A stretch of DNA of 64,000 bases. Origin: Planctomycetota bacterium. Lineage in GTDB: Bacteria > Planctomycetota > Planctomycetia > Planctomycetales > Planctomycetaceae. The stretch is taken from the NCBI GenBank assembly GCA_046341255.1, contig JBKDRW010000597.1, positions 2,295 to 66,294 on the forward strand, written 5' to 3'. Shown in pieces: positions 1 through 24,884 of the stretch. The translations under genes and the position numbers were made by a program. Numbering within the stretch: the first letter of the stretch is position 1; each line of letters starts with the position of its first letter. A model generated the notes under the pieces. That model was given only the letters and a program-made list of their open reading frames with translations, was not told where the DNA came from and ran no database searches.

Positions 1-213
1 GAGCAAATGACACCTCATTGCGGTGGACGATATAAACCCTGTCGATTGGACGGACGTGCTATACGCCGATACATCACAAGCTGGAAGATCAGAAGCACTA
101 TCCGCTGGCTGCAGTACGAGCGTCGCCTTCTTGTCCGCCATGAAAGTCGCGCTCATCCGTCGAAGGCTGCCTGCATCTCACCTGCATGATGTGTACTGAC
201 AGGAAATCTTGAA

Positions 214-1278
214 ATGGCCTCGGATGCGACATCACTTTTTAATGTGGAAGTTCACGTGAGGTGGGTAATGACGAAGCCGCGCGTGGTCGGCAATATGGCA
301 GATAAGGCGAGGATGTGGGTGTGCTTGCTAAGTCTTCACCTCTTGCTGCCGGTTCGCGAGTTGAGAGCTGACGACTCTGCAACTCTGAAGATGCTTTACC
401 TTGCTCAGGTCGCAGCAGAGTCAGCGTTTCCTTCTGGAGAACTTCATGCCACTGTCGTCGACGAGTGGGCGAAGCGGGAGGCAGACGTCGTCATTCAGTG
501 GCGCGGCGAAAGTTGTTATATTCGGGCTACCTGTAAGGAAACGATGACATTATCGGAGGAACAAATTCCTGAAGTGCGGGAAGTTGAGCAAATCTATACT
601 CCCGGTGTTTGGATCTTTTCCGAACCGAAAGCAAAAATTGTTCAGCGCGTGTTGGACAAGAGGATGTCGGGCTGGTCGCAGCTTAAGCTGATGCCAAAAG
701 ATGCCTGGTTCTGTTTGGCACCAGAGAGTCAGAGAACCTGGTCGCAGAAGTTAAAGCAGCAAATGGATCCAGGTGGGCCCTGGACGACAGACATTCAGGA
801 ATTGCCTGACGGGGTTTGGGAGGTCACCGATACCGATAAACAAAGCGGCGATCTGTGTGTGACCGTTTATGACACTCGCAAGGCCGGAAATGTCGTGAGG
901 TATGAGTGTATTCCGGTTGGCGAAAGCAATCAGTATCGATTGAGAGGAGAATATGGTTGGGCTTACGTGGATGATAGTCGCTGGGCCCTGAAGTCTTATA
1001 CGTATCAGCTGACAACCAGGGCAGATGAGAATTTTGAAAAGTGTCCATCTTTCAGCATCAAAGTGAAGGAATTCAATCCCAATCCGTCGATCTCGGTCAA
1101 TCGCTTCGAGATGAGTTCGCTGACTCTGAGAAAGGGTACTCTGGTGGAAGAACTTGGGGCCAAAGAGCGTCGCTATCGAATTGGGGATAAAGAGGGGCCT
1201 GAGGCAGGGATATCTGAGGAAGTCTTCAGGGCTCTCATTGAGATCGGAAAAGATAAGGGATTCGGTGCTGCGAAGTAG
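214..1278 (+). CDS. hypothetical secreted protein; probable paralog of the 18856..19848 product (first visible gene of cassette copy 1)
   Basis: 354-aa ORF. The in-frame Met at 295 is followed by a signal-peptide-like stretch (MADKARMWVCLLSLHLLLPV), so the true start may be 268 or 295. It shows weak but ordered by-eye similarity to the 330-aa product of 18856..19848 (ES..SGxxHxT, then [IV][QE]W[RS][GE][ED]..Y[IF], then V[KD][ES]F[NE]P). It sits in the same position directly upstream of a C39-like gene. No family recognised. Confidence 0.55.
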   Translation: MASDATSLFNVEVHVRWVMTKPRVVGNMADKARMWVCLLSLHLLLPVRELRADDSATLKMLYLAQVAAESAFPSGELHATVVDEWAKREADVVIQWRGESCYIRATCKETMTLSEEQIPEVREVEQIYTPGVWIFSEPKAKIVQRVLDKRMSGWSQLKLMPKDAWFCLAPESQRTWSQKLKQQMDPGGPWTTDIQELPDGVWEVTDTDKQSGDLCVTVYDTRKAGNVVRYECIPVGESNQYRLRGEYGWAYVDDSRWALKSYTYQLTTRADENFEKCPSFSIKVKEFNPNPSISVNRFEMSSLTLRKGTLVEELGAKERRYRIGDKEGPEAGISEEVFRALIEIGKDKGFGAAK

Positions 1279-12321: not shown

Positions 12322-15297
12322 TCATCTCTGCTCTGCGGCATCGATGGGGACATTGCAGAAGGTGAGCGCAGCGATGCCAGTTGCGCCGGTCAGTAAAAGA
12401 TCCTGGTTCCACGCTTTTTCCTTCAGGTAGGTAATCTTCGTGGCAGCGGAAGGCTCTTTGAGTCGGAGAGTCAGCACCGTGCCCTGCACATGACCTGAAA
12501 GGACTTTCCCCTGCTCGCTGTCGAGATAGAACTGACTGACGAGCTTGTCATCCCAGACGATCGGCTGATCAAAGTCCAGCAGGATGGAGTCGCGAGCGGC
12601 ATTAAAAGAAACGGATTGGAGGTTTGGGGGAGAGATGGCTCCTGCAGGCAATTTGCCGTAATGATCCCGCTCGATCAGCGGCTGAATTGTACGTGCAAAT
12701 TCAGCCCAGCCGACCAATGGGAAATGGCAACCCCCCGGAGGCCGTATGCCGAGCGTTGACATAATGCTCATCTTGGAAAACAAGTGAGGGAGCGTGCGCT
12801 GTTTCTCACGCAGCATGTCACCGGAACCGAAGTTTCCACCCATCGCGCAGGAATTGGGCCAGATCTGGAATACATAATAGTGCTGCACATTGGGAAAGTC
12901 CTGCTTCCAGCCAGCAGCCATTTCGACGAAGAAATGATGATATGTTTCCCAACCGTAGCCGCCGGTCGGGCCATCGGCTCCCTGGTCATTTTCACCCTGA
13001 TGCCACAGAATGCCGCGAATGCCATGTGTCAGTTTTGCCTTTTGGACGCGCCACAGCATGCGTCCATAAATCGTTGCGAGATCGGTCGGATCAGCATGGT
13101 TGCGTTGATGCATGTCGATGCGAGTTCCGCCGACGGCACCATTGATCATGAAAATGGGGATTTTCTGGCTGTCAACGAGCCGCTTCGCGAGCTCCATGCC
13201 CCACCAGCCAAGTTCCGCTTTTTCCCCCTGCTGCGCCTTCCATACGGGAAGCACCCATAGGTTGCCCACGTTGTCGTCCGGGTTCTGCGAAGGCCGCGCA
13301 TAACTGCGAATCCACTCATGGGTTTCCGCCGGCGATTTCTCGTCTGTATCGGTTGCCAGTGCGTTTGACTGGCCATCGATCAGATAAGCATCGCCGCAAA
13401 CGAGGTTGCTGACGGTATCCAGCACGTGATCGGTGCCGGTCCCAAATTCCACTTGATATTTGATCAGCCCAGGCTTCAGCTTGACGGTCAATGCGTAATT
13501 CTTATCCGGCGTTGGTTTGGCAGTGGCCGTTTGAATGAGTTTGTCGTCGGCGTACAGCTTCAGGAACACGGAATCCGCCGCTTCAGTCAACGTCCCGTTG
13601 TAGTGGAGCGTACCTTCGTTCTTGTCATCACGGGCATAGAATTGTCCTTCTTCCGGCTTTTCATCCAGAGCCGGAATGCGTTCGACCCACGGATCTGTCT
13701 CAGGTTCCGTCACGTCGATTTCCACGGATTGTGACACAGGCATGCCACCATTGCTGATGGTCGCGGTGACTGTCAGCCTGCCACTGTTCTGGGAGCCTTT
13801 CAGAACAAGTTTGCCCGGTTTGACTTCCTTGATCACTGCAAATGGTCCCGCACTCCACTCGGTCTTCAAAATGCCCGCGTTCCTGGCTTGCATGGCCCCG
13901 AGATTCGACACCTGCGGAACCACCTCAATGGTCGCTCGGCCGTCCCACTGCTTTGGGGCGTCGAGCGTGAAAACGGGCTCCTGAATCGCTTCCTTTACGG
14001 AGATCGCAACGTCCCTTGTTTTTACTCCATCAGCAAACACGGCCTTACATTGCAACGAGACGATCTGATCATCAGTGACACGCCCCGCATCAAAGGCGAA
14101 TTTCAATTGATCGACTGCCGCAATAGTTTCCTGTCCCTCACGCTTCAGGATCCAATAGATCTTCTGCGCGCCACCAGCCTGCAGTGCAAAAGTTACCTTC
14201 TCGTTCTCAGCGACTGTCGCACTCGCGGGTGAGACCGTGAATGCGGTACCTGATGGCACCACCGGACCGACCAGAGTCTGCAAGGCCTTTTGATTTTCAT
14301 ACTGCAACTTCACCCAATGCGGCGATCTCATAACCTTCGACAGTCGCACTTCGTCAATGTCACCAGCGAAGTCATAATGATTGTACCAGCCGCCGATATA
14401 AAACCGCGCAGGCGTTTTAATGGCCAGCGGGGCGTCTGGCGTCTGAGACACGTTGCTCAGTTCGCCATTGACATAAATTCGCGAATCGCCCTTCTGATAG
14501 GTATGCACGACATGAATCCACTCGTTCATGGGAAGACGACTGAGGCTATCGACATTCGCACCAGAGAAATAGCACTCCATGCTGATCCTCGGCGGACTGA
14601 CAAAGTGCATGATCACTTTTCCCTGCCCATGTTCATTGCCCCATGCCAACGCGCGACCATTGGTCTTCTCCGCTCGCAACCACGCCTCTGTGCTATGAGA
14701 ACTCGATCCGACGGGAAGGTTCGCGATCGTCTCTCCGCAAAAAACACCCTGACCACCGGCGAGATGCCGCGCCCGTCCGATCATTCCCTGAATCGCCGTG
14801 GTGCCGACGTTCGTGGTCTCGACCGACCCCACTTCATCTGACAGGCTTTCACCCATATGCAGAACACTCTGATACCCGTTGGCTTCATTGAATACGGCTT
14901 TGCCGTTCGATTCACTTTGGGCATTTGGCTGCCCCCAGTGAATCTTGATTTCCTGCCGCGAGTGACCCTGAATTTTGGGGATCCTCACCCAGAGACTCGC
15001 CGTTCCTGCGGCCGCATCCCACTGCTCGATTTGATACGCCAAGGCGATTCCCTGTGCGGAAAATCGGATATCCTCTCCGTTCGGGGCGGCTGCGGAAAAG
15101 TTGAAGAAGTCCTTGTGCAGTCGCACAAGCAGCGGGAAGTTCTCAACGCTTGCGTCGGTCGGCAGGTTTGCCCCATCGGGCGTGGTGTTCAGATAGATCG
15201 ACCCGGTTTCTTTCCAATCCGCATATTGCGCTGAGGCTGTCTGTAACTGAAAGGTCAGTGCCGCCAACGCGGTGATCAGCGTGTGGATCAGGTTCAT
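12322..15297 (-). CDS. multidomain secreted protein: DUF2341 / LamG-like lectin, Ig-like modules, sialate O-acetylesterase-type SGNH hydrolase
   Basis: Signal peptide MNLIHTLITALAALTFQLQTASA. DUF2341-like region (FPLLVRLHKDFFNFS...GEDIRF...IEQWD...LWVRIP). LamG-like region (F.GDIDEVRLSKVMRSPHWVKLQYENQ). Esterase motifs are LIDGQSNA and GILWHQGENDQG. Confidence 0.75.
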   Translation of the reverse strand: MNLIHTLITALAALTFQLQTASAQYADWKETGSIYLNTTPDGANLPTDASVENFPLLVRLHKDFFNFSAAAPNGEDIRFSAQGIALAYQIEQWDAAAGTASLWVRIPKIQGHSRQEIKIHWGQPNAQSESNGKAVFNEANGYQSVLHMGESLSDEVGSVETTNVGTTAIQGMIGRARHLAGGQGVFCGETIANLPVGSSSHSTEAWLRAEKTNGRALAWGNEHGQGKVIMHFVSPPRISMECYFSGANVDSLSRLPMNEWIHVVHTYQKGDSRIYVNGELSNVSQTPDAPLAIKTPARFYIGGWYNHYDFAGDIDEVRLSKVMRSPHWVKLQYENQKALQTLVGPVVPSGTAFTVSPASATVAENEKVTFALQAGGAQKIYWILKREGQETIAAVDQLKFAFDAGRVTDDQIVSLQCKAVFADGVKTRDVAISVKEAIQEPVFTLDAPKQWDGRATIEVVPQVSNLGAMQARNAGILKTEWSAGPFAVIKEVKPGKLVLKGSQNSGRLTVTATISNGGMPVSQSVEIDVTEPETDPWVERIPALDEKPEEGQFYARDDKNEGTLHYNGTLTEAADSVFLKLYADDKLIQTATAKPTPDKNYALTVKLKPGLIKYQVEFGTGTDHVLDTVSNLVCGDAYLIDGQSNALATDTDEKSPAETHEWIRSYARPSQNPDDNVGNLWVLPVWKAQQGEKAELGWWGMELAKRLVDSQKIPIFMINGAVGGTRIDMHQRNHADPTDLATIYGRMLWRVQKAKLTHGIRGILWHQGENDQGADGPTGGYGWETYHHFFVEMAAGWKQDFPNVQHYYVFQIWPNSCAMGGNFGSGDMLREKQRTLPHLFSKMSIMSTLGIRPPGGCHFPLVGWAEFARTIQPLIERDHYGKLPAGAISPPNLQSVSFNAARDSILLDFDQPIVWDDKLVSQFYLDSEQGKVLSGHVQGTVLTLRLKEPSAATKITYLKEKAWNQDLLLTGATGIAALTFCNVPIDAAEQR

Positions 15298-16105: not shown

Positions 16106-17161
16106 TTAATCACCCTCGCTGCGGGATCCGAATGCTCGCCAGGCTCCGGTATCGATTTCGGATGATACAAATCGAACCGATCCATCGAGCATCAGAAGGC
16201 TGACCGTCCCGTCCCGGTGCAAGCTTCGAGCGCCCACTGCACCCCAGTCTGCGACCATCAGACCTGCCGCTGGCCAGGATTCTGCCGCGAACCGATCCAG
16301 AACACAATCCGGAATGGCCGTGTTTGGCGTCAGTACATGATTGTATCCTGTATAAAGATAACTGTCTTTCACAAAATTATGCCCAGCAGACGAAGCATAG
16401 TACACGGGCGGTGCACTCAGCGCCGCTCGGCATAGCTCGACGGTCTCGTCAGCGGCTCGTTGCTCGGGATCGAATCCAAGAGACATCGCGTTCGTCATCC
16501 AGATGTCCCGCTTCGAGTCGTAAGCAGTGCGTGTCATCTGAGAAATCGTCCGTTCGCTCATGGCTGCCGTATTCGATAAGCCATCGCTGATGGAGGACAG
16601 TGCAATCGGTGTCAGTGAACTGACACCAGCAAGTGCTCCCTTTCCTCGTGCCAATTCACCTTCAGCCCCGGCTTCGTCAAAAAAGCCAACATTACTGCCG
16701 GTACAGGCTCGATAATTGACCCCTGTCGCAATGCTTTCTGAAGGACAATGAAACGCAGGTAATTCGATTGTTGACCCAAGGTGCAGGACCTGCATTTCCG
16801 GTTCTTTATCAATTCGTTCGAACAGAGCGGCCTGCTCCAGAAATGGAAGGAGCTGGACCTGCGGAGATCGCCAGGGCGTGGAGTTGCCGGTCCTGGGATC
16901 AAAGATCGTTCCAACGGGAAGGTGGCGGTATGACTGCTCAAACTGGTGCAGCGCCAGCCCGAACTGGCGAATTCGATTTTGGCAGTCAACTCGGCGAGCC
17001 GTGTCTCGCGCGGCAATCACTGCGGGAACGAGTAGTGCCAACAGGATTCCGACAACGGAAATGCTGACAAGCAGCTCAATCAATGAAATGCCTGATCGCA
17101 CGTTCCGACCGGCGCTCTGTCGTCGTTCGGAACCAACGCTCAGGTCAGGTTCACAGCGCAT
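16106..17161 (-). CDS. DUF1559 family protein with type IV pilin-like N-terminus
   Basis: The start SGISLIELLVSISVVGILLALLVPAVIAARDTARRVDCQNRIRQFGLALHQFEQSYRHLPVG is family-typical. The C-terminal LLMLDGSVRFVSSEID is also typical. Confidence 0.85.
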   Translation of the reverse strand: MRCEPDLSVGSERRQSAGRNVRSGISLIELLVSISVVGILLALLVPAVIAARDTARRVDCQNRIRQFGLALHQFEQSYRHLPVGTIFDPRTGNSTPWRSPQVQLLPFLEQAALFERIDKEPEMQVLHLGSTIELPAFHCPSESIATGVNYRACTGSNVGFFDEAGAEGELARGKGALAGVSSLTPIALSSISDGLSNTAAMSERTISQMTRTAYDSKRDIWMTNAMSLGFDPEQRAADETVELCRAALSAPPVYYASSAGHNFVKDSYLYTGYNHVLTPNTAIPDCVLDRFAAESWPAAGLMVADWGAVGARSLHRDGTVSLLMLDGSVRFVSSEIDTGAWRAFGSRSEGD

Positions 17162-17226
17162 CGGAATAGATCCTTGTGCAATTCGGAAATCGCGTCAGTC
17201 TTTCAGCCACACCTTATCATCGCGCC

Positions 17227-18228
17227 CTATGGTGCGACAAGCCCGCTCATTCCAAAGACGCACTGCTTCCGACGCCCATCTGAAAGCATAAGATCAATAG
17301 GTACTTCGATGTGAAATGGGCCTGTATCTCGCGGAGTTTCAACATGCAGTTCGCAGGAAATAAGACCTGGTTTAATCACAGACTGATTCAGATGATACCT
17401 GCCGGTTGAAACAATCGTGACACCTGGGTCCTCGGACCGCAGTAGGAATTTCTGCTTCCACGAACTTCCGCCAATGACCTTACTGCGAAATGCGCCCTTC
17501 GGTTCCAGCGACACCTCATCCTGTGAGACCCAGTCGATGGGCACTAGAATGGTGCCGATGGGGTCTCGACAGGTCAGCCGGACTGATCCTCGCGAATCAC
17601 CTGGGGAATTTTGAGGAGTGACTGTGACCAGAATTTTTGTCCTGTCACCCTCGTCGATCCTTTGGATTGTACACTCTCTTGACGGGACAACCTCGGCATT
17701 CAGGAGCCAGTCACTGATAGCCGTTCGATCAGGGGTTGTGACACTCAAGGCAAGGGTTTTCGCCGTGCCACAGGTGAGTCGCCCAAAGGACAGCGATTGC
17801 GGTGACACGTCGACGGTGCTGCCCCCAACCCAGCGAATTTCACCAGTCGCGCTATAGACAGAATCGCTGGTTTCCACTCGCAGTCGCGAGGCCTTCTGAC
17901 CCAACTCACGAATTTTGACTGCAGCAGCAATCATGGTTGATTCACCTGATGCAAGCACATGCTTTTCAGGTTTAGCGGCGGTACACCCGCAAGTTGTCTC
18001 GATCCGACTGATTGAAACAGCCTTCCCAGTTCTGTTGTGGAGCTGAAACGTGACGTTGACTGGAGCGGCGTGTAACTCGATCTTCCCCAGATCCATCTGC
18101 CGAGGCTCGAGGAACAGCCCTTCGTCCGGTGTTGCGACAGGCAGATCTCTGTCAGACTTTTTCGTCAGAATTGTCTCGTCGGATGGAACCGCCGTTGGGC
18201 GACATCCGACGCACATCAAAACGCCCAA
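17227..18228 (-). CDS. DUF1573 domain protein (Ig-like repeats); N-terminus probably extends to 18270 across an in-frame TGA
   Basis: DUF1573 hallmark MDLGKIE...FQLHNRTGKAVSISRIETTCGCTAA. It is homologous by eye to the C-terminal two thirds of the 1504..3162 product. The TTG start at 18228 leaves only a truncated lipoprotein-like signal (GVLMCVGC); see findings. Confidence 0.75.
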   Translation of the reverse strand: MGVLMCVGCRPTAVPSDETILTKKSDRDLPVATPDEGLFLEPRQMDLGKIELHAAPVNVTFQLHNRTGKAVSISRIETTCGCTAAKPEKHVLASGESTMIAAAVKIRELGQKASRLRVETSDSVYSATGEIRWVGGSTVDVSPQSLSFGRLTCGTAKTLALSVTTPDRTAISDWLLNAEVVPSRECTIQRIDEGDRTKILVTVTPQNSPGDSRGSVRLTCRDPIGTILVPIDWVSQDEVSLEPKGAFRSKVIGGSSWKQKFLLRSEDPGVTIVSTGRYHLNQSVIKPGLISCELHVETPRDTGPFHIEVPIDLMLSDGRRKQCVFGMSGLVAP

Positions 18229-18271
18229 AGCAAGAGCGTATCACATGAAAAGTTTTTGGAGTTCGGGCATA

Positions 18272-18856
18272 TTAAACTCCTGACTTTCGCCAAAGTTTGT
18301 TTCGGATGGTGACCACACATCCGGTGACTGCAAGCAAGACCCCGCCCCAGATGGAGCATTGTTTTCCAACGTCACGCCACCACTTGGCTGAAACGATCGT
18401 CTCTTCCGGCACCAGAGCAGTTCTTGCCAGCAGGAGTGCGTGTCCATCCCACTCCGTCAAAAAAGTCGCTGCTGGCAATGTGTAACTTTCCGGAGGATCA
18501 GAAATGGTCACCGTTTGCCCGTCGTATTTCGTGATCAAGACGAAATGTCGGCGTTTCAAATGGGCGATACACGCAAAGGGATGCTGACGGTCATTCAGTG
18601 CAGGCAATGAAGTCTGAACCGCCAGAGTGTGGAAATTCAATGCCGTTGCCTGCTCCTGCAACTGACTCAAAGAGACTCCATCCTTCTCTGCGGGCAGGCG
18701 TTTCAGCAACTCCTCGAAGGTTACGGGAACGGTTTCGTCAAGCGAATGCGCGGCGACGAAAAGGCATCTCGCGCCGCAGTCAGCCTGAGACTGTGCCCTC
18801 AAGCATTCTGCCTGAGTCATCAACACGAACAGCAGGCCAAACAATCTTCCGTTCAT
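18272..18856 (-). CDS. stand-alone secreted C39-like cysteine peptidase domain with C-terminal TM anchor
   Basis: Signal peptide MNGRLFGLLFVLMTQAECLRA. The catalytic Cys context is DCGARCLFVAAH and the His context is RRHFVLITKY. The C-terminal TM is IWGGVLLAVTGCVVTI. The start overlaps the upstream stop (TAATG). Confidence 0.75.
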   Translation of the reverse strand: MNGRLFGLLFVLMTQAECLRAQSQADCGARCLFVAAHSLDETVPVTFEELLKRLPAEKDGVSLSQLQEQATALNFHTLAVQTSLPALNDRQHPFACIAHLKRRHFVLITKYDGQTVTISDPPESYTLPAATFLTEWDGHALLLARTALVPEETIVSAKWWRDVGKQCSIWGGVLLAVTGCVVTIRNKLWRKSGV

Positions 18857-19848
18857 TATCGGGGGTCCATGAAACTGCCGGGGCGTATGCGTTTGACATG
18901 TTCCTGAAGTGCCCGTTCCAGGTCAGATGCCCCATCCACGCCCTCCGTCCATTCTCTTATTGTGCCATCAGCAAGTTGCTCTGATACCATGGCACCTTTC
19001 GGTACAGGGCCAAAAGACGAGAGCCGCGCAGGCCCGGAAAATGCACGTTTCGTGAGAGGTTCGAATGAGTCAACGACACATTCGACGATTCGGACAGGAT
19101 CCGATCCCGCCTGATCGTGAGATGAAATCATCTTGCTGCGTGAAGGAAACCACAGATCGTCATTGACGCATTTCCATTCGCGCGTCGCGTGAATGTAAGA
19201 ATCGCCAGTGTCCTTGTGCCAGACGAGGTGCATTTCGGTACAAAGACCCGCTTGATCAAGGTCGAAGATCCGTTTTGCCGTATCCGAAGGAAACGTTGTG
19301 TTCAGTTCAACCAGGCGGTTCCGCGTTTCAACGGAACGCTCAAAAAGTCTTCCGAATCTGAGCGTGGTGGGCTGCGGCTGCAACAAACTCAGCGGATTAT
19401 TCGTCCCCTCGTACGGGCCAGTGAGAACCAGATATGTCACGGGATCCGGTCGCCAAGCCGCAGCTTTATCGTGCTGGCCGGGTGTGATGTCATAGGAGAT
19501 AAACGAGACCGCATTCCGTTCCGTGCTGGAGGATCGCTTGAGTTCATAGCCACCGGAAAACAGCAGTCTGATGTCATGATCCAGTGCTGTTCGCCCTCTT
19601 GAACCGGACTTTGCGTGCTGCATATTGCCGTCGAAATACATGTAGTCTTCCGACCATTCCACCAGACCCTTCAATTGAAACAGATCTTCTCCCGGAACAA
19701 ACTGATTGCTCCATGTGAAATGCATCCGCCCGGACTTGCATCTGTCCATATGCGATTCATAGGCATTCCTCAGAAGTGAAATTGTCAGATCGTCGTCGAA
19801 TGAGATCGGGAGCGCAGCAAACAGAGCTGCCAAAGCAGCGTACACCAT
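18856..19848 (-). CDS. hypothetical protein; probable paralog of the 214..1278 product
   Basis: 330-aa ORF with a short hydrophobic N-terminus (MVYAALAALFAALP). An AAGGA run lies about 9 nt upstream of the ATG. Similarity is ordered with the cassette-1 protein. It is translationally coupled to the C39-like gene. Confidence 0.6.
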   Translation of the reverse strand: MVYAALAALFAALPISFDDDLTISLLRNAYESHMDRCKSGRMHFTWSNQFVPGEDLFQLKGLVEWSEDYMYFDGNMQHAKSGSRGRTALDHDIRLLFSGGYELKRSSSTERNAVSFISYDITPGQHDKAAAWRPDPVTYLVLTGPYEGTNNPLSLLQPQPTTLRFGRLFERSVETRNRLVELNTTFPSDTAKRIFDLDQAGLCTEMHLVWHKDTGDSYIHATREWKCVNDDLWFPSRSKMISSHDQAGSDPVRIVECVVDSFEPLTKRAFSGPARLSSFGPVPKGAMVSEQLADGTIREWTEGVDGASDLERALQEHVKRIRPGSFMDPR

Positions 19849-20396
19849 TCCGGAATCCTTTCGACTTGCTGATTCGATAAACTGTGGTCCTGCAGTTGAA
19901 AGCCCTCAACTGGCTCAGGGGACCTTCGTCCTCCGGGGCCGTTTTCTTCGACGGTCAGCTCAAGGAACTCCACGACCGGAGGGGCAGCAAACTTCAGGCA
20001 ACCCTGGCTTGCCTCCTCTTCTTCAATGGGCTCTGCGTTCATATCCACCACACAATCTTCACCGATGAGCGTACAGGGGCGTCTCTCGATGCAGATTCCC
20101 GGATGCTCGGGCGAGCAATAGCTTTCAAAAAACCAAAAGATACACCTGAACCAACTTCCGCTGAGGGACGGAACGCTGATCATTGCCTCGCCAACACATG
20201 GTCCCTCTGCGGGGCAGGATACTGTCGCTGCACAATCGTAGCGGCTGATGTTGCGACACCTTCGATATCCGCCCCGCAGTGAGTCAAGCTCGTCCGGGGC
20301 AAGTCCTCGCCCATGAACGGCGGCGTTTGATGATGTGATACACATTACTGACGCAGACAGCCCGAGTGTCAGCAGCACTGATGGCACAATCTTCAT
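19785..20396 (-). CDS. Cys-rich protein with a double-glycine leader-like motif (candidate C39 substrate)
   Basis: 203-aa ORF. The N-terminal hydrophobic segment is MKIVPSVLLTLGLSASV. The motif LAPDELDSLRGG follows (20268-20303), then a region with 12 Cys. The 3' end overlaps the next gene by 64 nt. No family recognised. Confidence 0.55.
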   Translation of the reverse strand: MKIVPSVLLTLGLSASVMCITSSNAAVHGRGLAPDELDSLRGGYRRCRNISRYDCAATVSCPAEGPCVGEAMISVPSLSGSWFRCIFWFFESYCSPEHPGICIERRPCTLIGEDCVVDMNAEPIEEEEASQGCLKFAAPPVVEFLELTVEENGPGGRRSPEPVEGFQLQDHSLSNQQVERIPEWCTLLWQLCLLRSRSHSTTI

Positions 20397-21065: not shown

Positions 21066-24000
21066 TCACTCACCGGGTACCACATGAATCGTCATGTCAA
21101 CCGTTTCCGCAAACGGGCGTTGGGAGGCGTCGTTGAAGAGCATGCGGAGTTCGAGTTGATCGCAGGCGGCGATGTCGGGGATGACCAATCGAACCGTTCT
21201 GGCATCGATCGTCTGAACTTCCTGAATCGTCAGTTCATCATGACCTGTCTGGCCGGGATTACGGACGGAGAACTGGTCGGAACCGTAACGCTGTGACCAT
21301 TTGTAATCCCACATCTCGGCCGAGTACGACTTCGGATTGCACGCGGATTCAGGATCGACATCAAACGTCAGCGACAGTTCGATGCCGTTCGGAACCACGG
21401 CAACTCGATCGATCATCTGCACATCTTCGCCGGTGTAGCGAAGCCGTTGAAGGCAACCGTCGAGTCCACCGGCTGGGCCTTGCCAGCCGGACAGGCCGAC
21501 GCCATAAAGCTGGCCGTCCGTTGGATTGAATCGCATTCGCATCACACCGGCATCCCACTGATGCGGCAGCGTGATGATGGCTCCCTGCATGATTTCGCCG
21601 ACTTCCTGAAGCGACATCGAATACAGCCAGCCTTTTCCAAACGACGAATGGATCATCCGACCAGCCAGCGGCCCGAAGCGTTTGTCAGCCGCCCAGACCT
21701 GACCGCCGCAGGAGTTGTCCAGTTCCTGAGGAGTCCACACGATGGGCTCATCGAACGACTTCGGCAACTGGCCGCCGTGACGTTCCTTCAGCCATGCGGT
21801 CTGTTCTTTGTTGATCGGCATGTTGCCCAGAAACGAATCGGGGCGAATCAGCGAGATCTTCCCCGCGGGCATCCATGGTCCCTGATTGTCGGACACCGTG
21901 AAGCGATCGTCGGCCAGCTTGCCCATGCCGTTGGGTGTTCGCAGGCCCCATGCGACGACGTCGGCTCGATGACCTTCGGGGGGAACTCGCATGATTGTGC
22001 CGGGCCGATGATGATCCGTGTACTGCCCGGCCTTGGCGAAGTAGAAGTTGCCGAGCGAATCGGTCTGAAGATCGAAGTTGAACGCATGGAACGAACACGA
22101 CACGTCGTCATCATTCCAGAACGCTTCGATGAAATCCGCCTCGTCATCGCCATTGAAATCGTGCAGACGCTTCAAGCCGTCTCGACATGTCACATAGATC
22201 ATCCCGTTGATGACTCGCACGCCGAACGGTTCAAACAGACCCGCCGCGAATCGTTTCCAGATAACCTTCGAAAGATCCTTGTCGATACCACCGACGATGT
22301 ACACATCGCCGCCGTGAGTCGTCACGACACATCGGCCGTTATCAAAGAAATCGAGCGCACTCGTGCGAACCCACGCGTTCCACGGGTTTTCAAACGGCAC
22401 GGGAATCGTATCGAGCGCGTAGCCGTTGACGGACTGGCCGAGCGAGCCGGTGACTTCCAGTCGCTGAGGCCATCGCTGTCCGCCGCCTTTCAACTGTTTT
22501 GTCATGTCGGCCCACGCCTGCTCGCGTAAGCCGGAGATGAGCGAACTGAAGCTGGCGAGTTCGTCGGCTTCCTCCAGAGTACTCCGCACGATGCGAAACT
22601 GTCGCGGCTTGTCGGATGGAGGAATGGTCAGAATCAAGCGGCCGGAATCATCGCGGTTCCATGTGAGCCCTTCGGCATCATCGAGCACCTGCGCAACGCT
22701 GATCAGGCCCCAGTTACTGTCGCTTGCTTCAACGGCTGGTGTTGTGTCTGAACCGGGTTCCCACTCGAACAATGATTCGCTGTTTGGTGCCGTTTCGGAT
22801 GCGGCAAACTCAGCCAGCTCCTTCGCGGTCCATGCTCGATTTTGAATTCGCACCCACGCGACATCGCCCTTCAGATCGCCTCCGAAGTTTGTCGCTGTCG
22901 CACCGATCTTCAGAACGAAGAACTCTACCGGATCGCGGCGAAAGCCCTGTTGCTCCGCTTCAAGGTTCCCGTCGACATACATCCGAGTTGACTGATCATC
23001 CACCACCAGCGCGGCGACGTGCCATTGGCCATCAGCCACATCGGACCGACCGGACATGGCTCCAACCCAGCCGATGTCATACACCAGACGGCCTCCACGG
23101 ACGAACAGGCTTTTGCCATTCGGCTTCCAAACGCCAGTGGCAGGAGTCGATGCGATCAATGTCCCGCCATCATCGGTTCGAAATCGGACCAGCGTCGTGC
23201 GACCGATCGTGCCAAGATCTAGCTTCTTCGCGTTCTCTCCTTCGACGATATGTCTCGCGCGATTTGGTTCGGGCTTTGGGACGTTCTGCTCGGACGGCTG
23301 GCCAGTGATCGCAACGGCCGCTCGATCGGCGGACGCTGTTGGATCCTTCAGGGGAAGAATCGTCGAGCTCGCGGCATCAACAAGTCCCGCCGGTCCGCCT
23401 GTTGATTTCAACTGAGCCACCGACACTCGCAACTCGCGATCGCTCGCACCGACGTTTAGAGTGTGAACCAGTGAAACGCGGCCGTCGTTGGTCACGGCTT
23501 CGATAGATTCCAGCACATCGCGGCCGTAAATCGAGTAGCTCAGGATCGCGCGATCGTTGTACAGATAGTGGCCCCGATACTGCAGCCAGTCTTCACGGAT
23601 GGGTCCACGCGGCGGCTTTGCATCGGCCTGATCGAACGAGCCATTGAACTCCCATTGCCAATAACCAAGGCCCGGCAGTTCATCGCCATCAATCTGCGGC
23701 ATGCCTTCACCGCGCTGGCGATAGTGATGAGTCTCGTTGAGATCCAGCCAGCCCTTCCATGCGGCCGCGAACCGCATACGATGCAGGTCATAATTGATGG
23801 CGACATTGTCCTTCAGTCGAAACGTCAAACCGTTCTGAACCTGCTGACCAAGCTGTGAGGCCAGCACCGGCCCGAAGTCTCGATCGCCCGCTTCTTCTCG
23901 TTCGCCAAGGCCAGTGCCTTTGGGAAGTTCTGACAGATACGCATCCGTGACCACCGCATAATCGGTGTTCCGGTCTTTCATCAGCGCTTCGCGGACGTAG

Positions 24001-24884
24001 TGCACCACCTGATAGCGTTCCTTCGGTGACAGATGCGACAACGGCGCCATTAAACCGGCCCCGCGGCTGACGGTGAGAAACATCCGATAAGGATCAGCAC
24101 CAAACTTCAGCTTCTGAGTCCCGAACGCCCGGGCTGTCGGAAGCTTGGGCGTGTTGCCGTCAGACCCATGACAATTGACGCAGTGACCTTCGAAGATTCC
24201 CTGGCCGACCTTGAAATCCTCTTCGCCCAGCGACTTCAAAATCTGCGCGTGATTCAGATCGAGCGTATCGTCGACGACGAGCATCTCCTGTGGAGACGGC
24301 TGCAATTGCTTCGCACGGTCGGGGCCGCCAACAGAAATCTCCTGGATGTACCGCACAAGATCATAGAAATCCCGTTCTTCTCGAAGTGACGCAACAAGTC
24401 CGTTCGGCATCATCGATGTTTTCGACGGCACGATTTCATCGACCTCCGCGCGAGGGATGACGATCTCCTGCAGCAGACTGGAAGCATCTCGGAGCACGAT
24501 CTGTTTATCATCCTGCTTCGCGATCATCCCCGTGACGACCCGACCGTCGGTCGTCGCAACCGACACTGTTTCGTAACCCTTGCGAATCGTTTTCGATGGG
24601 TCGAGCAACGATTCGACGATATGAGCCAGCGTCGTTTCGACTCCGATCTTTGCCAGATCCGGCCCCAGAGGTGACGCATCCGCCCCCGCCGCATGACACT
24701 TCACACACGCCGCCGCCGACTTATGAAATACTAACGCCCCGCGCTTCGCATCCGCTCTCAGGCGAACGGCCGCTTCAATCTGCCGCAGCGATTTTCCCCG
24801 CACTCCCTGTTCCAGCTGATCATCCGCCATCAGCGAGCCGGTGAGAGCCAGCATCGAAGAACACAACACGATTCGGTAGAGCAC
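21066..24884 (-). CDS. giant secreted multidomain c-type cytochrome (two CxxCH sites), LamG-like lectin domain, beta-propeller (PVC-type heme-binding protein)
   Basis: Signal peptide MLYRIVLCSSMLALTGSLMA. Heme motifs are CVKCH and CVNCH. The LamG-like stretch is LFVRGGRLVYDIGW...GQWHVAALVVDDQSTRMYVDGNL. The C-terminal region resembles glucose/sorbosone-dehydrogenase-type propellers. Confidence 0.8.
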   Translation of the reverse strand: MLYRIVLCSSMLALTGSLMADDQLEQGVRGKSLRQIEAAVRLRADAKRGALVFHKSAAACVKCHAAGADASPLGPDLAKIGVETTLAHIVESLLDPSKTIRKGYETVSVATTDGRVVTGMIAKQDDKQIVLRDASSLLQEIVIPRAEVDEIVPSKTSMMPNGLVASLREERDFYDLVRYIQEISVGGPDRAKQLQPSPQEMLVVDDTLDLNHAQILKSLGEEDFKVGQGIFEGHCVNCHGSDGNTPKLPTARAFGTQKLKFGADPYRMFLTVSRGAGLMAPLSHLSPKERYQVVHYVREALMKDRNTDYAVVTDAYLSELPKGTGLGEREEAGDRDFGPVLASQLGQQVQNGLTFRLKDNVAINYDLHRMRFAAAWKGWLDLNETHHYRQRGEGMPQIDGDELPGLGYWQWEFNGSFDQADAKPPRGPIREDWLQYRGHYLYNDRAILSYSIYGRDVLESIEAVTNDGRVSLVHTLNVGASDRELRVSVAQLKSTGGPAGLVDAASSTILPLKDPTASADRAAVAITGQPSEQNVPKPEPNRARHIVEGENAKKLDLGTIGRTTLVRFRTDDGGTLIASTPATGVWKPNGKSLFVRGGRLVYDIGWVGAMSGRSDVADGQWHVAALVVDDQSTRMYVDGNLEAEQQGFRRDPVEFFVLKIGATATNFGGDLKGDVAWVRIQNRAWTAKELAEFAASETAPNSESLFEWEPGSDTTPAVEASDSNWGLISVAQVLDDAEGLTWNRDDSGRLILTIPPSDKPRQFRIVRSTLEEADELASFSSLISGLREQAWADMTKQLKGGGQRWPQRLEVTGSLGQSVNGYALDTIPVPFENPWNAWVRTSALDFFDNGRCVVTTHGGDVYIVGGIDKDLSKVIWKRFAAGLFEPFGVRVINGMIYVTCRDGLKRLHDFNGDDEADFIEAFWNDDDVSCSFHAFNFDLQTDSLGNFYFAKAGQYTDHHRPGTIMRVPPEGHRADVVAWGLRTPNGMGKLADDRFTVSDNQGPWMPAGKISLIRPDSFLGNMPINKEQTAWLKERHGGQLPKSFDEPIVWTPQELDNSCGGQVWAADKRFGPLAGRMIHSSFGKGWLYSMSLQEVGEIMQGAIITLPHQWDAGVMRMRFNPTDGQLYGVGLSGWQGPAGGLDGCLQRLRYTGEDVQMIDRVAVVPNGIELSLTFDVDPESACNPKSYSAEMWDYKWSQRYGSDQFSVRNPGQTGHDELTIQEVQTIDARTVRLVIPDIAACDQLELRMLFNDASQRPFAETVDMTIHVVPGE

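Follow-up and report, generated by a model that had tools for sequence, protein, structure and literature searches.

C39 peptidases are normally cytoplasmic domains of ABC exporters that cleave double-glycine leaders, and the classical leader of their substrates reads L-S-x-x-E-L-x-x-I-x-G-G. Such leaders typify class II bacteriocins, microcins and peptide pheromones. The only C39 peptidase studied in the periplasm is FapD. This protease belongs to the Fap functional amyloid system of Pseudomonas, where its catalytic Cys is required for Fap secretion, its substrate is unclear and the Fap proteins lack a canonical leader (PMC5557850). Given the precedent of FapD, a periplasmic C39 peptidase alone is not new. 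Here we analyze a 64,000-nucleotide (nt) stretch of Planctomycetota DNA (assembly GCA_046341255.1, contig JBKDRW010000597.1, positions 2,295 to 66,294; hereafter the window), which carries two copies of a gene cassette for a C39 peptidase, a DUF1573 protein, a DUF1559 pseudopilin-like protein and a secreted protein that we call LolA-like after its predicted fold. Copy 2 begins with a gene for a Cys-rich precursor that carries a double-glycine leader. We propose that this is an envelope-located, self-contained maturation cassette for a small secreted disulfide-rich protein. We put the probability of this reading at roughly 60%, and we hold its core (Sec export of the precursor, a periplasmic orientation of the peptidase and C39 cleavage after Gly-Gly) to be equally probable.

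The precursor and its leader

The precursor encoded by the head gene starts with an N-terminus resembling a Sec signal peptide, continues with a short propeptide and ends in a Cys-rich acidic domain. Upstream DNA is available for ten cassettes (window copy 2, L004, L005, L006, L012, L013, L015, L017, L020 and L023), and the leader motif is present in all ten. It has the form R-x-[LF]-[ST..]-x-x-[EDQ]-[LM..]-x-x-[LIV..]-x-G-[GSR], with the consensus RxL[ST]xxE[LM]xx[LIV]xGG; the nine instances from outside the window are RQFTIDDLKELRGG (L005), RTLTDAESWSLFGG (L006), RTLSSAECRSIFGS (L004), RTLTVAESIRVIGG (L013), RSLNAAEAANAWGR (L012), RTLSDREMWVTFGG (L015), RELGPAEMSALIGG (L017), RGLETDQMAKIVGG (L020) and RTLTREEMRSRFGG (L023). 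Counted back from the presumed cleavage site, the leaders are hydrophobic at −12, −7 and −4 and acidic at −8, have Gly-Gly at −2/−1 and possess an extra, invariant Arg at −14. Position −1 is Gly in eight of the ten, Ser in one and Arg in one. The propeptide is 17 to 29 amino acids (aa) long past the presumed signal-peptidase site, as in ordinary double-glycine leaders. A hydrophobic, signal-peptide-like segment and an AxA-type site lie ahead of the leader in the eight full-length precursors, and a hydrophobic core and AxA-type site are also visible in the L006 precursor, which is cut at the contig end.

The mature domains comprise 93 to 111 aa (160 aa in the window copy), contain 10 to 13 Cys residues and are acidic, with an isoelectric point (pI) of 4.1 to 5.7. 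The homologues align by a conserved cysteine framework and the leader motif while the remainder diverges, and the precursor matches no Pfam or NCBIfam family. In a regular-expression scan of 1628 open reading frames (ORFs) of >=50 aa from the window and the other loci, the combination of motif and Cys-rich tail occurred only in the precursor genes; the motif by itself was found elsewhere just twice, in unrelated sequences, among 210,000 residues. A motif scan of the other four cassette proteins did not find the pattern L-S-x-x-E-L-x-x-I-x-G-G in any of them. An earlier annotation of this DNA (the original prediction) had suggested the Cys-rich protein as a substrate for the C39 domain, and this pairing is now strongly supported, since the precursor carries a canonical double-glycine leader. 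The motif was absent from that annotation and is the key to the mechanism that we propose.

The window precursor extends about 60 aa beyond the C-terminal ends of the other nine homologues (19785-19990) and runs 64 nt into the next gene, which points to the loss of an ancestral stop codon or a change of frame in this lineage.

The leader invites an extension of our proposal in which the Cys-rich domain is a bacteriocin-like toxin or an extracellular signal, kept inactive by the leader, and the remaining genes serve immunity or export. Besides the leader, the similarity of the C39 domain to ComA, PCAT1 and LahT and the presence of two divergent paralogous cassettes in the genome fit this idea, as does a weak, sub-threshold match of the L020 precursor to a ComC leader (E 0.35), although the last is a mere echo of the motif. 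However, typical bacteriocins with double-glycine leaders are cationic, whereas the mature domains here are acidic and measure about 100 aa, and the cassettes hold neither a conserved immunity-like small membrane protein nor an ABC, membrane fusion protein or outer membrane factor exporter. Searches with PADLOC and of other families gave no match either. We consider a toxin or signal unlikely.

The C39 peptidase

The C39 domains of both copies match Pfam PF03412 well above the cut-off of 22 bits (copy 2, E 2e-20, 73.4 bits; copy 1, E 1e-10, 41.6 bits), and a profile search of the PDB returned LahT150 (E 5.5e-11), ComA and PCAT1, all double-glycine peptidases, as the nearest solved structures. 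The NCBIfam exporter models gave the cassette proteins 12 to 25 bits against cut-offs of 500 to 850. In an exhaustive hidden Markov model search of 1.84 billion representative proteins (family cut, E <= 1e-30), the subfamily comprised at least 186 clusters at 50% identity, and among the best 150 of the 186 every member was either a short stand-alone or a long fused protein and none was an ABC exporter. Among the members scored, 87 were shorter than 260 aa (stand-alone proteins of about 190 aa; range, 180 to 260), and 49, about a third, were fusions to DUF1573 of 520 to 590 aa (about 550 aa), an arrangement also present in L013, L014 and L023. Less sensitive approaches recovered 3 to 18 relatives (word-indexed protein searches) or 3 and 5 loci (pattern scans of genome and metagenome contigs).

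The catalytic residues are almost invariant: Cys27 is kept in 148 and His104 in 150 of 151 representatives, and Asp120 in 143, with Asn in 7 others. Both window copies hold the complete triad. The original prediction had seen a C39-like papain fold here, and a catalytic C39 fold is borne out by the profile matches to LahT, ComA and PCAT1 and by the near-invariance of Cys, His and Asp in the 151 representatives. A second Cys, four residues past the catalytic one (CGxxC; Cys27/Cys31 in the window, 18763-18777), occurs in 129 of 147 representatives; it is unusual for C39 peptidases and could be relevant to redox control in the periplasm.

In 112 of 136 scored representatives the catalytic Cys comes after a hydrophobic segment, and in 134 of the 136 a transmembrane helix follows the C39 domain, with Lys and Arg enriched beyond the helix. 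The stand-alone window protein conforms to this pattern, with an N-terminal signal or anchor and a C-terminal transmembrane helix followed by a basic tail. In the fusions, a two-helix membrane hairpin with a retained lipobox links C39 to three DUF1573-type Ig domains; the AlphaFold2 (AF2) model of the copy-1 fusion, built from 50 sequences, reached a predicted local distance difference test score (pLDDT) of 82.7. With two transmembrane helices between them, the C39 and DUF1573 domains should share one side of the membrane. The signal peptides of the split DUF1573 proteins are of the ordinary lipoprotein type (interrupted in the window copy), and this, together with the same-side arrangement of the fusions, places C39 and DUF1573 outside the cytoplasm. 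We infer that the C39 domain faces the periplasm.

The Gly-Cys of the lipobox, at the end of the second hairpin helix, is invariant in 50 fused sequences (Gly240-Cys241 in the window, 2170-2175). Possibly the fusion receives a lipid and is cleaved internally by signal peptidase II, so that two proteins would again result.

Conservation of the cassette

Look-ups of the contigs of relatives and scans of genome and metagenome collections identified about 14 more independent cassettes with this order in genome bins of Planctomycetota and in metagenomes, which makes about 16 distinct cassettes with the window pair; their proteins share 20 to 55% identity with those of the window. The order LolA-like protein, C39, DUF1573, DUF1559 is found in a JGI metagenome (L001), a Planctomycetaceae genome bin (L004), a Planctomyces sp. 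genome bin (L005) and in L007, L010-L012, L013, L014, L015, L017, L020-L022 and L023. Two loci are permuted: L006 has C39, DUF1559 and DUF1573, and L018 (1296-4081) has the LolA-like gene, DUF1559 and C39, followed by a 247-aa Pro/Glu/Arg-rich ORF without a DUF1573 signature. All genome records that name an organism belong to Planctomycetota. The genes beside the cassette vary by locus (MMPL, histidine kinase, FIST, ThuA and polysaccharide synthase), so that the cassette itself is the conserved unit.

Could the genes be neighbors by chance, as members of abundant families whose association was then duplicated within one genome? DUF1559, a family of unknown function, is indeed very large, with 68 paralogues in Planctopirus limnophila (PMC10632474). 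Nevertheless, the 64-kb window holds just two DUF1559 genes, one inside each cassette; the five-gene order is kept in about 16 distinct cassettes with differing flanks; and C39 and DUF1573 form a single polypeptide in 49 representatives. The conserved order and the gene fusions refute chance adjacency, whose probability we regard as next to nil. They also bear out the expectation of the original prediction that the gene order is kept beyond this genome, here in about 14 further cassettes on unrelated contigs.

In L017 (4898-5994, 9756-12543) the LolA-like gene is split into ORFs of 206 and 146 aa, with a truncated T2SS-F gene and fragments of transposases a few kilobases downstream; this copy appears to be decaying or rearranged.

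We found no description of the five-gene cassette in the literature on DUF1559, DUF1573, periplasmic C39 peptidases and planctomycete Cys-rich proteins, and no curated family. A paper on HxS defence was considered and set aside, its single mention of C39 being unrelated. The lack of a PADLOC match indicates that the cassette is not a catalogued defence system.

The partner proteins

The copy-2 DUF1573 protein matches PF07610 with an E-value of 1e-14, and the two copies score 54.8 and 42.3 bits (cut-off, 26.1); Pfam also assigns these regions to HYDIN-VesB-like Ig domains. A CxC motif is present in all 62 DUF1573 partners or fusions; in the AF2 model of the fusion, which has three Ig-like domains, it lies between two strands of the first one. 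A fold search with the fused model offered no clue to function; its matches were limited to generic HYDIN-type arrays of tandem Ig domains. A selenocysteine (UGC) form of DUF1573 has been catalogued (PMC9312934), which points to redox chemistry.

The original prediction had reported a 1-nt spacer between C39 and DUF1573 in copy 2. An ATG at about 18270 does sit 1 nt past the C39 stop, where it would open a canonical lipoprotein signal peptide, MPELQKLFM*YALALGVLMCVGC (18241-18270, minus strand; the asterisk is a stop), but codon 10 of this signal peptide is an in-frame TGA. The same TGA is found in two independent assemblies (L002 and L003), and the L007 orthologue has an intact signal peptide. 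The TGA could be a recent nonsense mutation, it could be read through, or translation could restart at TTG 18228.

The LolA-like protein (330 to 360 aa) has a signal peptide or, in some loci, a lipobox, and is encoded directly upstream of C39 in loci other than the permuted L018. It has no sequence match in Pfam, NCBIfam or the PDB. The name derives from Foldseek, whose top matches to the medium-confidence AF2 model (pLDDT 65, pTM 0.63) were VioE, LolA and LolB, with an E-value of 1e-4 and a probability of 1.0 and with TM-scores of just 0.26 to 0.43. The C-termini of these proteins show a conserved amphipathic helix followed by (K/R)xG[FL]G (L001, L004, L005, L012-L018 and L023; window 18856-18900 and 1213-1278). 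In window copy 2 this tail is degenerate (RPGSF). The tail motif resembles a double-glycine site and does not fit it.

Wherever the available sequence extends far enough, the cassette includes an adjacent DUF1559 gene. The copy-2 protein matches PF07596 (SBP_bac_10) with an E-value of 2e-39 and has a prepilin cleavage site between ...RSG and ISLIELLV. In the two copies, PF07596 scores 137 and 114 bits and N_methyl (PF07963) 22.7 and 30.6 bits (cut-off, 21.2), and the NCBIfam models identify GspG-like N-termini and pre_pil_HX9DG in DUF1559 proteins. TIGR04294 scores 20.6 bits in copy 1, above its cut-off of 19, and 17.3 bits, just below it, in copy 2, which has H-X10-DG. By these signatures the DUF1559 proteins are bona fide prepilin-type.

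These properties support the main rival to our proposal, in which the cassette serves the construction or modification of a pseudopilus or similar pilus-like fiber, and C39 acts during fiber assembly on a different cassette protein (DUF1559, DUF1573 or the LolA-like protein, at its tail). The Cys-rich protein would then be a fiber subunit or adhesin, and its GG-like motif would not be a cleavage site. The genuine prepilin N-terminus of the ever-linked DUF1559 protein, the Ig-like domains of DUF1573, which resemble ASH/HYDIN-type arrays, and the shared C-terminal helix and G[FL]G tail of the LolA-like proteins are all in line with a fiber. Yet prepilins have an aspartic peptidase of their own, which cuts them at the cytoplasmic face, and so need no C39, and the G[FL]G tail does not suit the required Gly at −2 and −1. 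Moreover, the other four proteins lack the leader pattern that the precursor has, and no pilus-assembly ATPase, platform protein or secretin is conserved beside the cassettes examined. On balance a fiber seems quite unlikely, and we retain the Cys-rich precursor as the candidate substrate.

The two copies in the window

The features of both cassettes are collected in Table 1. Cassette 2 consists of five tightly packed ORFs on the minus strand, and cassette 1 lies on the plus strand. The coordinates that the original prediction had given for the ORFs are correct, its assignments of C39, DUF1573 and DUF1559 with a prepilin N-terminus are upheld by Pfam in both copies, and the Cys and His contexts, the CGC motif and the TAATG overlap between the LolA-like gene and C39 are all present. 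The 23-nt overlap reported for copy 1 is valid if DUF1559 begins at ATG 3140 and not otherwise. The list of cassette members was right for the four parts that it named and missed a fifth within the same range, the 203-aa Cys-rich gene.

Table 1. Cassette genes and motifs in the 64-kb window
Feature	Position	Strand	Basis or remark
Precursor gene, 203 aa, 12 Cys	19785..20396	-	ORF; Sec-type signal peptide aa 1-25, propeptide, Cys-rich acidic domain
Double-glycine leader motif RGLAPDELDSLRGG, aa 30-43	20268..20309	-	Predicted C39 cleavage after Gly43
Secreted 330-aa protein, no known family, predicted LolA/LolB/VioE-like fold	18856..19848	-	
C39 cysteine peptidase, 194 aa, membrane-anchored, periplasmic (predicted)	18272..18856	-	Pfam PF03412
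DUF1573 protein, 333 aa, Ig-like domains, CGC motif aa 80-82	17227..18228	-	Pfam PF07610
DUF1559 pseudopilin-like protein, 351 aa, prepilin leader and C-terminal H-X9/10-DG region	16106..17161	-	Pfam PF07596, N_methyl
Copy 1: LolA-like homologue, 354 aa	214..1278	+	Likely start ATG 295, giving signal peptide
Copy 1: C39-DUF1573 fusion, 569 aa	1453..3162	+	Pfam; Cys60/His137/Asp153, lipobox Cys241, CGC 306-308
Copy 1: DUF1559 pseudopilin-like protein, 363 aa	3083..4174	+	Pfam, NCBIfam; likely start ATG 3140

Both loci have the domain order LolA-like protein, C39, DUF1573, DUF1559, as had been noted before, and the proteins are homologous pairwise. Between copies, identity is 36% for C39 (E 2e-26), 22% for DUF1573 (E 3e-10) and 36% for DUF1559 (E 4e-43). 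The two LolA-like proteins show no significant similarity in BLASTP (E 0.18) and are homologous at the profile level only (hhalign with orthologue profiles: 99% probability, E 7e-18, 307 columns), so that the weak, ordered similarity first remarked upon proves to be homology. The copy-1 protein also has a collinear score against the profile of the other copies and a BLASTP match to the L015 orthologue (E 8e-12). The cassettes form two clades, each represented once in the window. Judged from these comparisons, the two copies are old paralogues and not the result of a recent duplication.

The precursor of copy 1 may lie just outside the window edge or be broken there. Exact look-ups with the 354-aa form, the 327-aa form and P0010 recovered no DNA upstream of window position 1, and a permissive tblastn search of window positions 1-230 with clade-B precursors gave nothing significant (the best correspondence was 'SPSCP' with 'SPNCP' of L020, E 0.08 in a tiny search space). 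An ORF fragment at window positions 1-143 (frame 3) ends in ...ASPSCPP*, resembling the ...SPNCP* of the clade-B precursors L017, L020 and L023; it has an in-frame stop 36 codons upstream.

Around the cassettes the window encodes TatC, PQQ/BamB-like beta-propeller proteins, a beta-lactamase-family protein, a sulfatase and PheT. On the minus strand, cassette 2 lies between the genes of two secreted proteins of very large size (12322-15297 and 21066-24884); one combines DUF2341, Laminin_G_3 and a SASA esterase domain and the other cytochrome c, DUF6797 and Laminin_G_3. The DUF2341/Laminin_G_3/SASA esterase neighbor recurs in L002, and neither giant is kept beside the cassettes of other organisms. 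A scan for promoters and terminators found no excess over the shuffled expectation.

Discussion

The original prediction had placed an uncharacterised extracytoplasmic processing or assembly module around a periplasm-facing C39 peptidase, a view that the catalytic C39 fold and the conserved gene order support. The enzyme class, the catalytic residues, the leader motif, the strict linkage, the gene fusions and the membrane segments can be read directly from the sequences, and they suggest the following course of events. The Sec system would carry the precursor into the periplasm, where signal peptidase I probably cuts at the AxA-type site. Removal of the signal peptide would leave a propeptide of 17 to 29 aa that ends in the double-glycine leader consensus. 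The C39 peptidase, its catalytic domain presumably tethered to the inner membrane on the periplasmic side through an N-terminal signal or anchor and the C-terminal transmembrane helix, would then cut after Gly-Gly and free the acidic domain of about 100 aa with its 10 to 13 Cys residues. We base this central step on homology, on the match between the enzyme class and the leader motif, and on the strict gene linkage.

The later steps are more speculative. The DUF1573 lipoprotein probably performs thiol-disulfide chemistry at the same site; it might help to fold the Cys-rich product by forming or isomerizing disulfides, or, by analogy with DsbG and DsbC, it might keep the catalytic thiol of C39 reduced in the oxidizing periplasm. 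The LolA-like and DUF1559 proteins would probably carry, anchor or export the mature product. One can imagine a complete route to the cell surface, reserved for this cargo and starting in the periplasm, in which propeptide removal by C39 is a checkpoint, the LolA-like carrier hands the folded Cys-rich protein to a cargo-specific DUF1559 protein, and a shared type II/type IV-like machine exports or displays the product. We regard this full sequence of events as unlikely. If it were true, the expansion of DUF1559 in planctomycetes would represent a library of cargo adaptors, and DUF1573 would be a new class of thiol-disulfide catalyst with an Ig fold and a CxC motif.

Several observations weigh against envelope maturation of the precursor. 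The oxyanion-hole Gln that canonical C39 domains carry about 6 residues ahead of their catalytic Cys is missing here; just 10 of 147 sequences have a Gln at −6, within a variable stretch (−10 to −4) that contains many Ala, Ser and Pro residues and comes directly after the N-terminal hydrophobic segment. The first beta-strand of canonical C39 domains is missing as well, the AF2 domain beginning at the Cys-bearing helix. With both elements missing, catalytic competence is an assumption. Signal peptides and topology were judged from hydropathy, charge and motif inspection. Two leaders deviate at −1 (GS in L004, GR in L012), and the L012 precursor ORF has no recognizable signal peptide. L018 has no recognizable DUF1573 beside its C39, and the copy-1 precursor is presumably cut off by the window edge. 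The TGA in the DUF1573 signal peptide indicates that copy 2 may be partly defective, and the low TM-scores and medium-confidence model make the LolA-like assignment a tentative one.

The missing Gln and strand would also suit a C39-like domain that merely binds its substrate, as in HlyB, or one that faces the cytoplasm. HlyB-type domains have lost the catalytic Cys, unlike the cassette proteins with their near-invariant Cys, His and Asp across 151 clusters. A cytoplasmic C39 would put the DUF1573 part of the fusions into the cytoplasm, which is at odds with the invariant lipobox Cys and with the lipoprotein signal peptides that the split forms have. Non-catalytic C39-like domains do occur in type 1 secretion systems (PMC5557850). 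On the strength of the triad and the lipoprotein signals we nevertheless rejected a non-catalytic or cytoplasmic C39, which we consider very improbable, and we favor a periplasmic peptidase that would release the Cys-rich domain.

The proposal makes predictions to the residue level for the precursor, the protease, the cleavage site and the active-site residue. It also defines two undescribed families, the acidic secreted domain with 10 to 13 Cys residues and the LolA-like protein, and it offers concrete genetic and biochemical partners for two large families that lack an assigned function, DUF1573 and DUF1559, the latter with dozens of paralogues per planctomycete genome.

Comparison with known systems

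The partner proteins can each be compared with a known component. The predicted open beta-barrel of the LolA-like protein, a putatively periplasmic protein, may resemble LolA, LolB and VioE (Foldseek E 1e-4, with the low TM-scores given above); the protein is nearly twice as long as these, has no sequence similarity to any solved structure or Pfam family and is compared through a medium-confidence model. DUF1559 proteins have the prepilin cleavage and methylation motif and the hydrophobic N-terminal helix of type II pseudopilins and type IV pilins (GspG-like; TIGR04294), but they differ from GspG-like pseudopilins in their large C-terminal DUF1559 (SBP_bac_10) domain, and the cassette is not accompanied by machinery for secretion or pilus assembly. 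The N-terminal domain of DsbD and the proteins DsbG and DsbC are periplasmic thiol-disulfide proteins that have an Ig-like fold or vicinal cysteines, the latter two protecting single catalytic cysteines. DUF1573 would be comparable to them as an exported Ig-like domain with an invariant CxC, a functional analogy without homology.

The PCAT/AMS exporters (ComA, PCAT1, LahT and CvaB) and the cassette have the Pfam family, the catalytic Cys, His and Asp, and the leader consensus and length in common. However, the cassette C39 lacks the transmembrane-transporter and ATPase domains as well as the oxyanion Gln and the N-terminal strand, and it is predicted to face the periplasm, whereas the peptidase domain of the exporters is cytoplasmic. 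Its candidate substrate has a Sec signal peptide ahead of the leader, and the cargo is a domain of about 100 aa with 10 to 13 Cys residues and not a short peptide. We therefore rejected membership in the PCAT group: there is no transporter, the membrane side is opposite and the substrate appears to be Sec dependent.

FapD is, besides these exporters, the closest precedent, a stand-alone, Sec-exported C39 peptidase that acts in the periplasm within a dedicated operon. The partner genes differ, and we rejected membership in the Fap system: the cassette has DUF1573, DUF1559 and LolA-like proteins in place of the amyloid subunits FapB/C/E and the outer membrane channel FapF, and no Fap-type family was among the precomputed Pfam matches of the genes neighboring the cassettes. 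The cassette C39 is also membrane anchored and often fused to DUF1573, and, compared with the published description of FapD (PMC5557850), its candidate substrate has a canonical leader. If our reading is correct, the cassette illustrates that double-glycine processing by C39 has moved to the periplasm and been combined with Sec export, with a substrate that, unlike that of FapD, is clearly identifiable.

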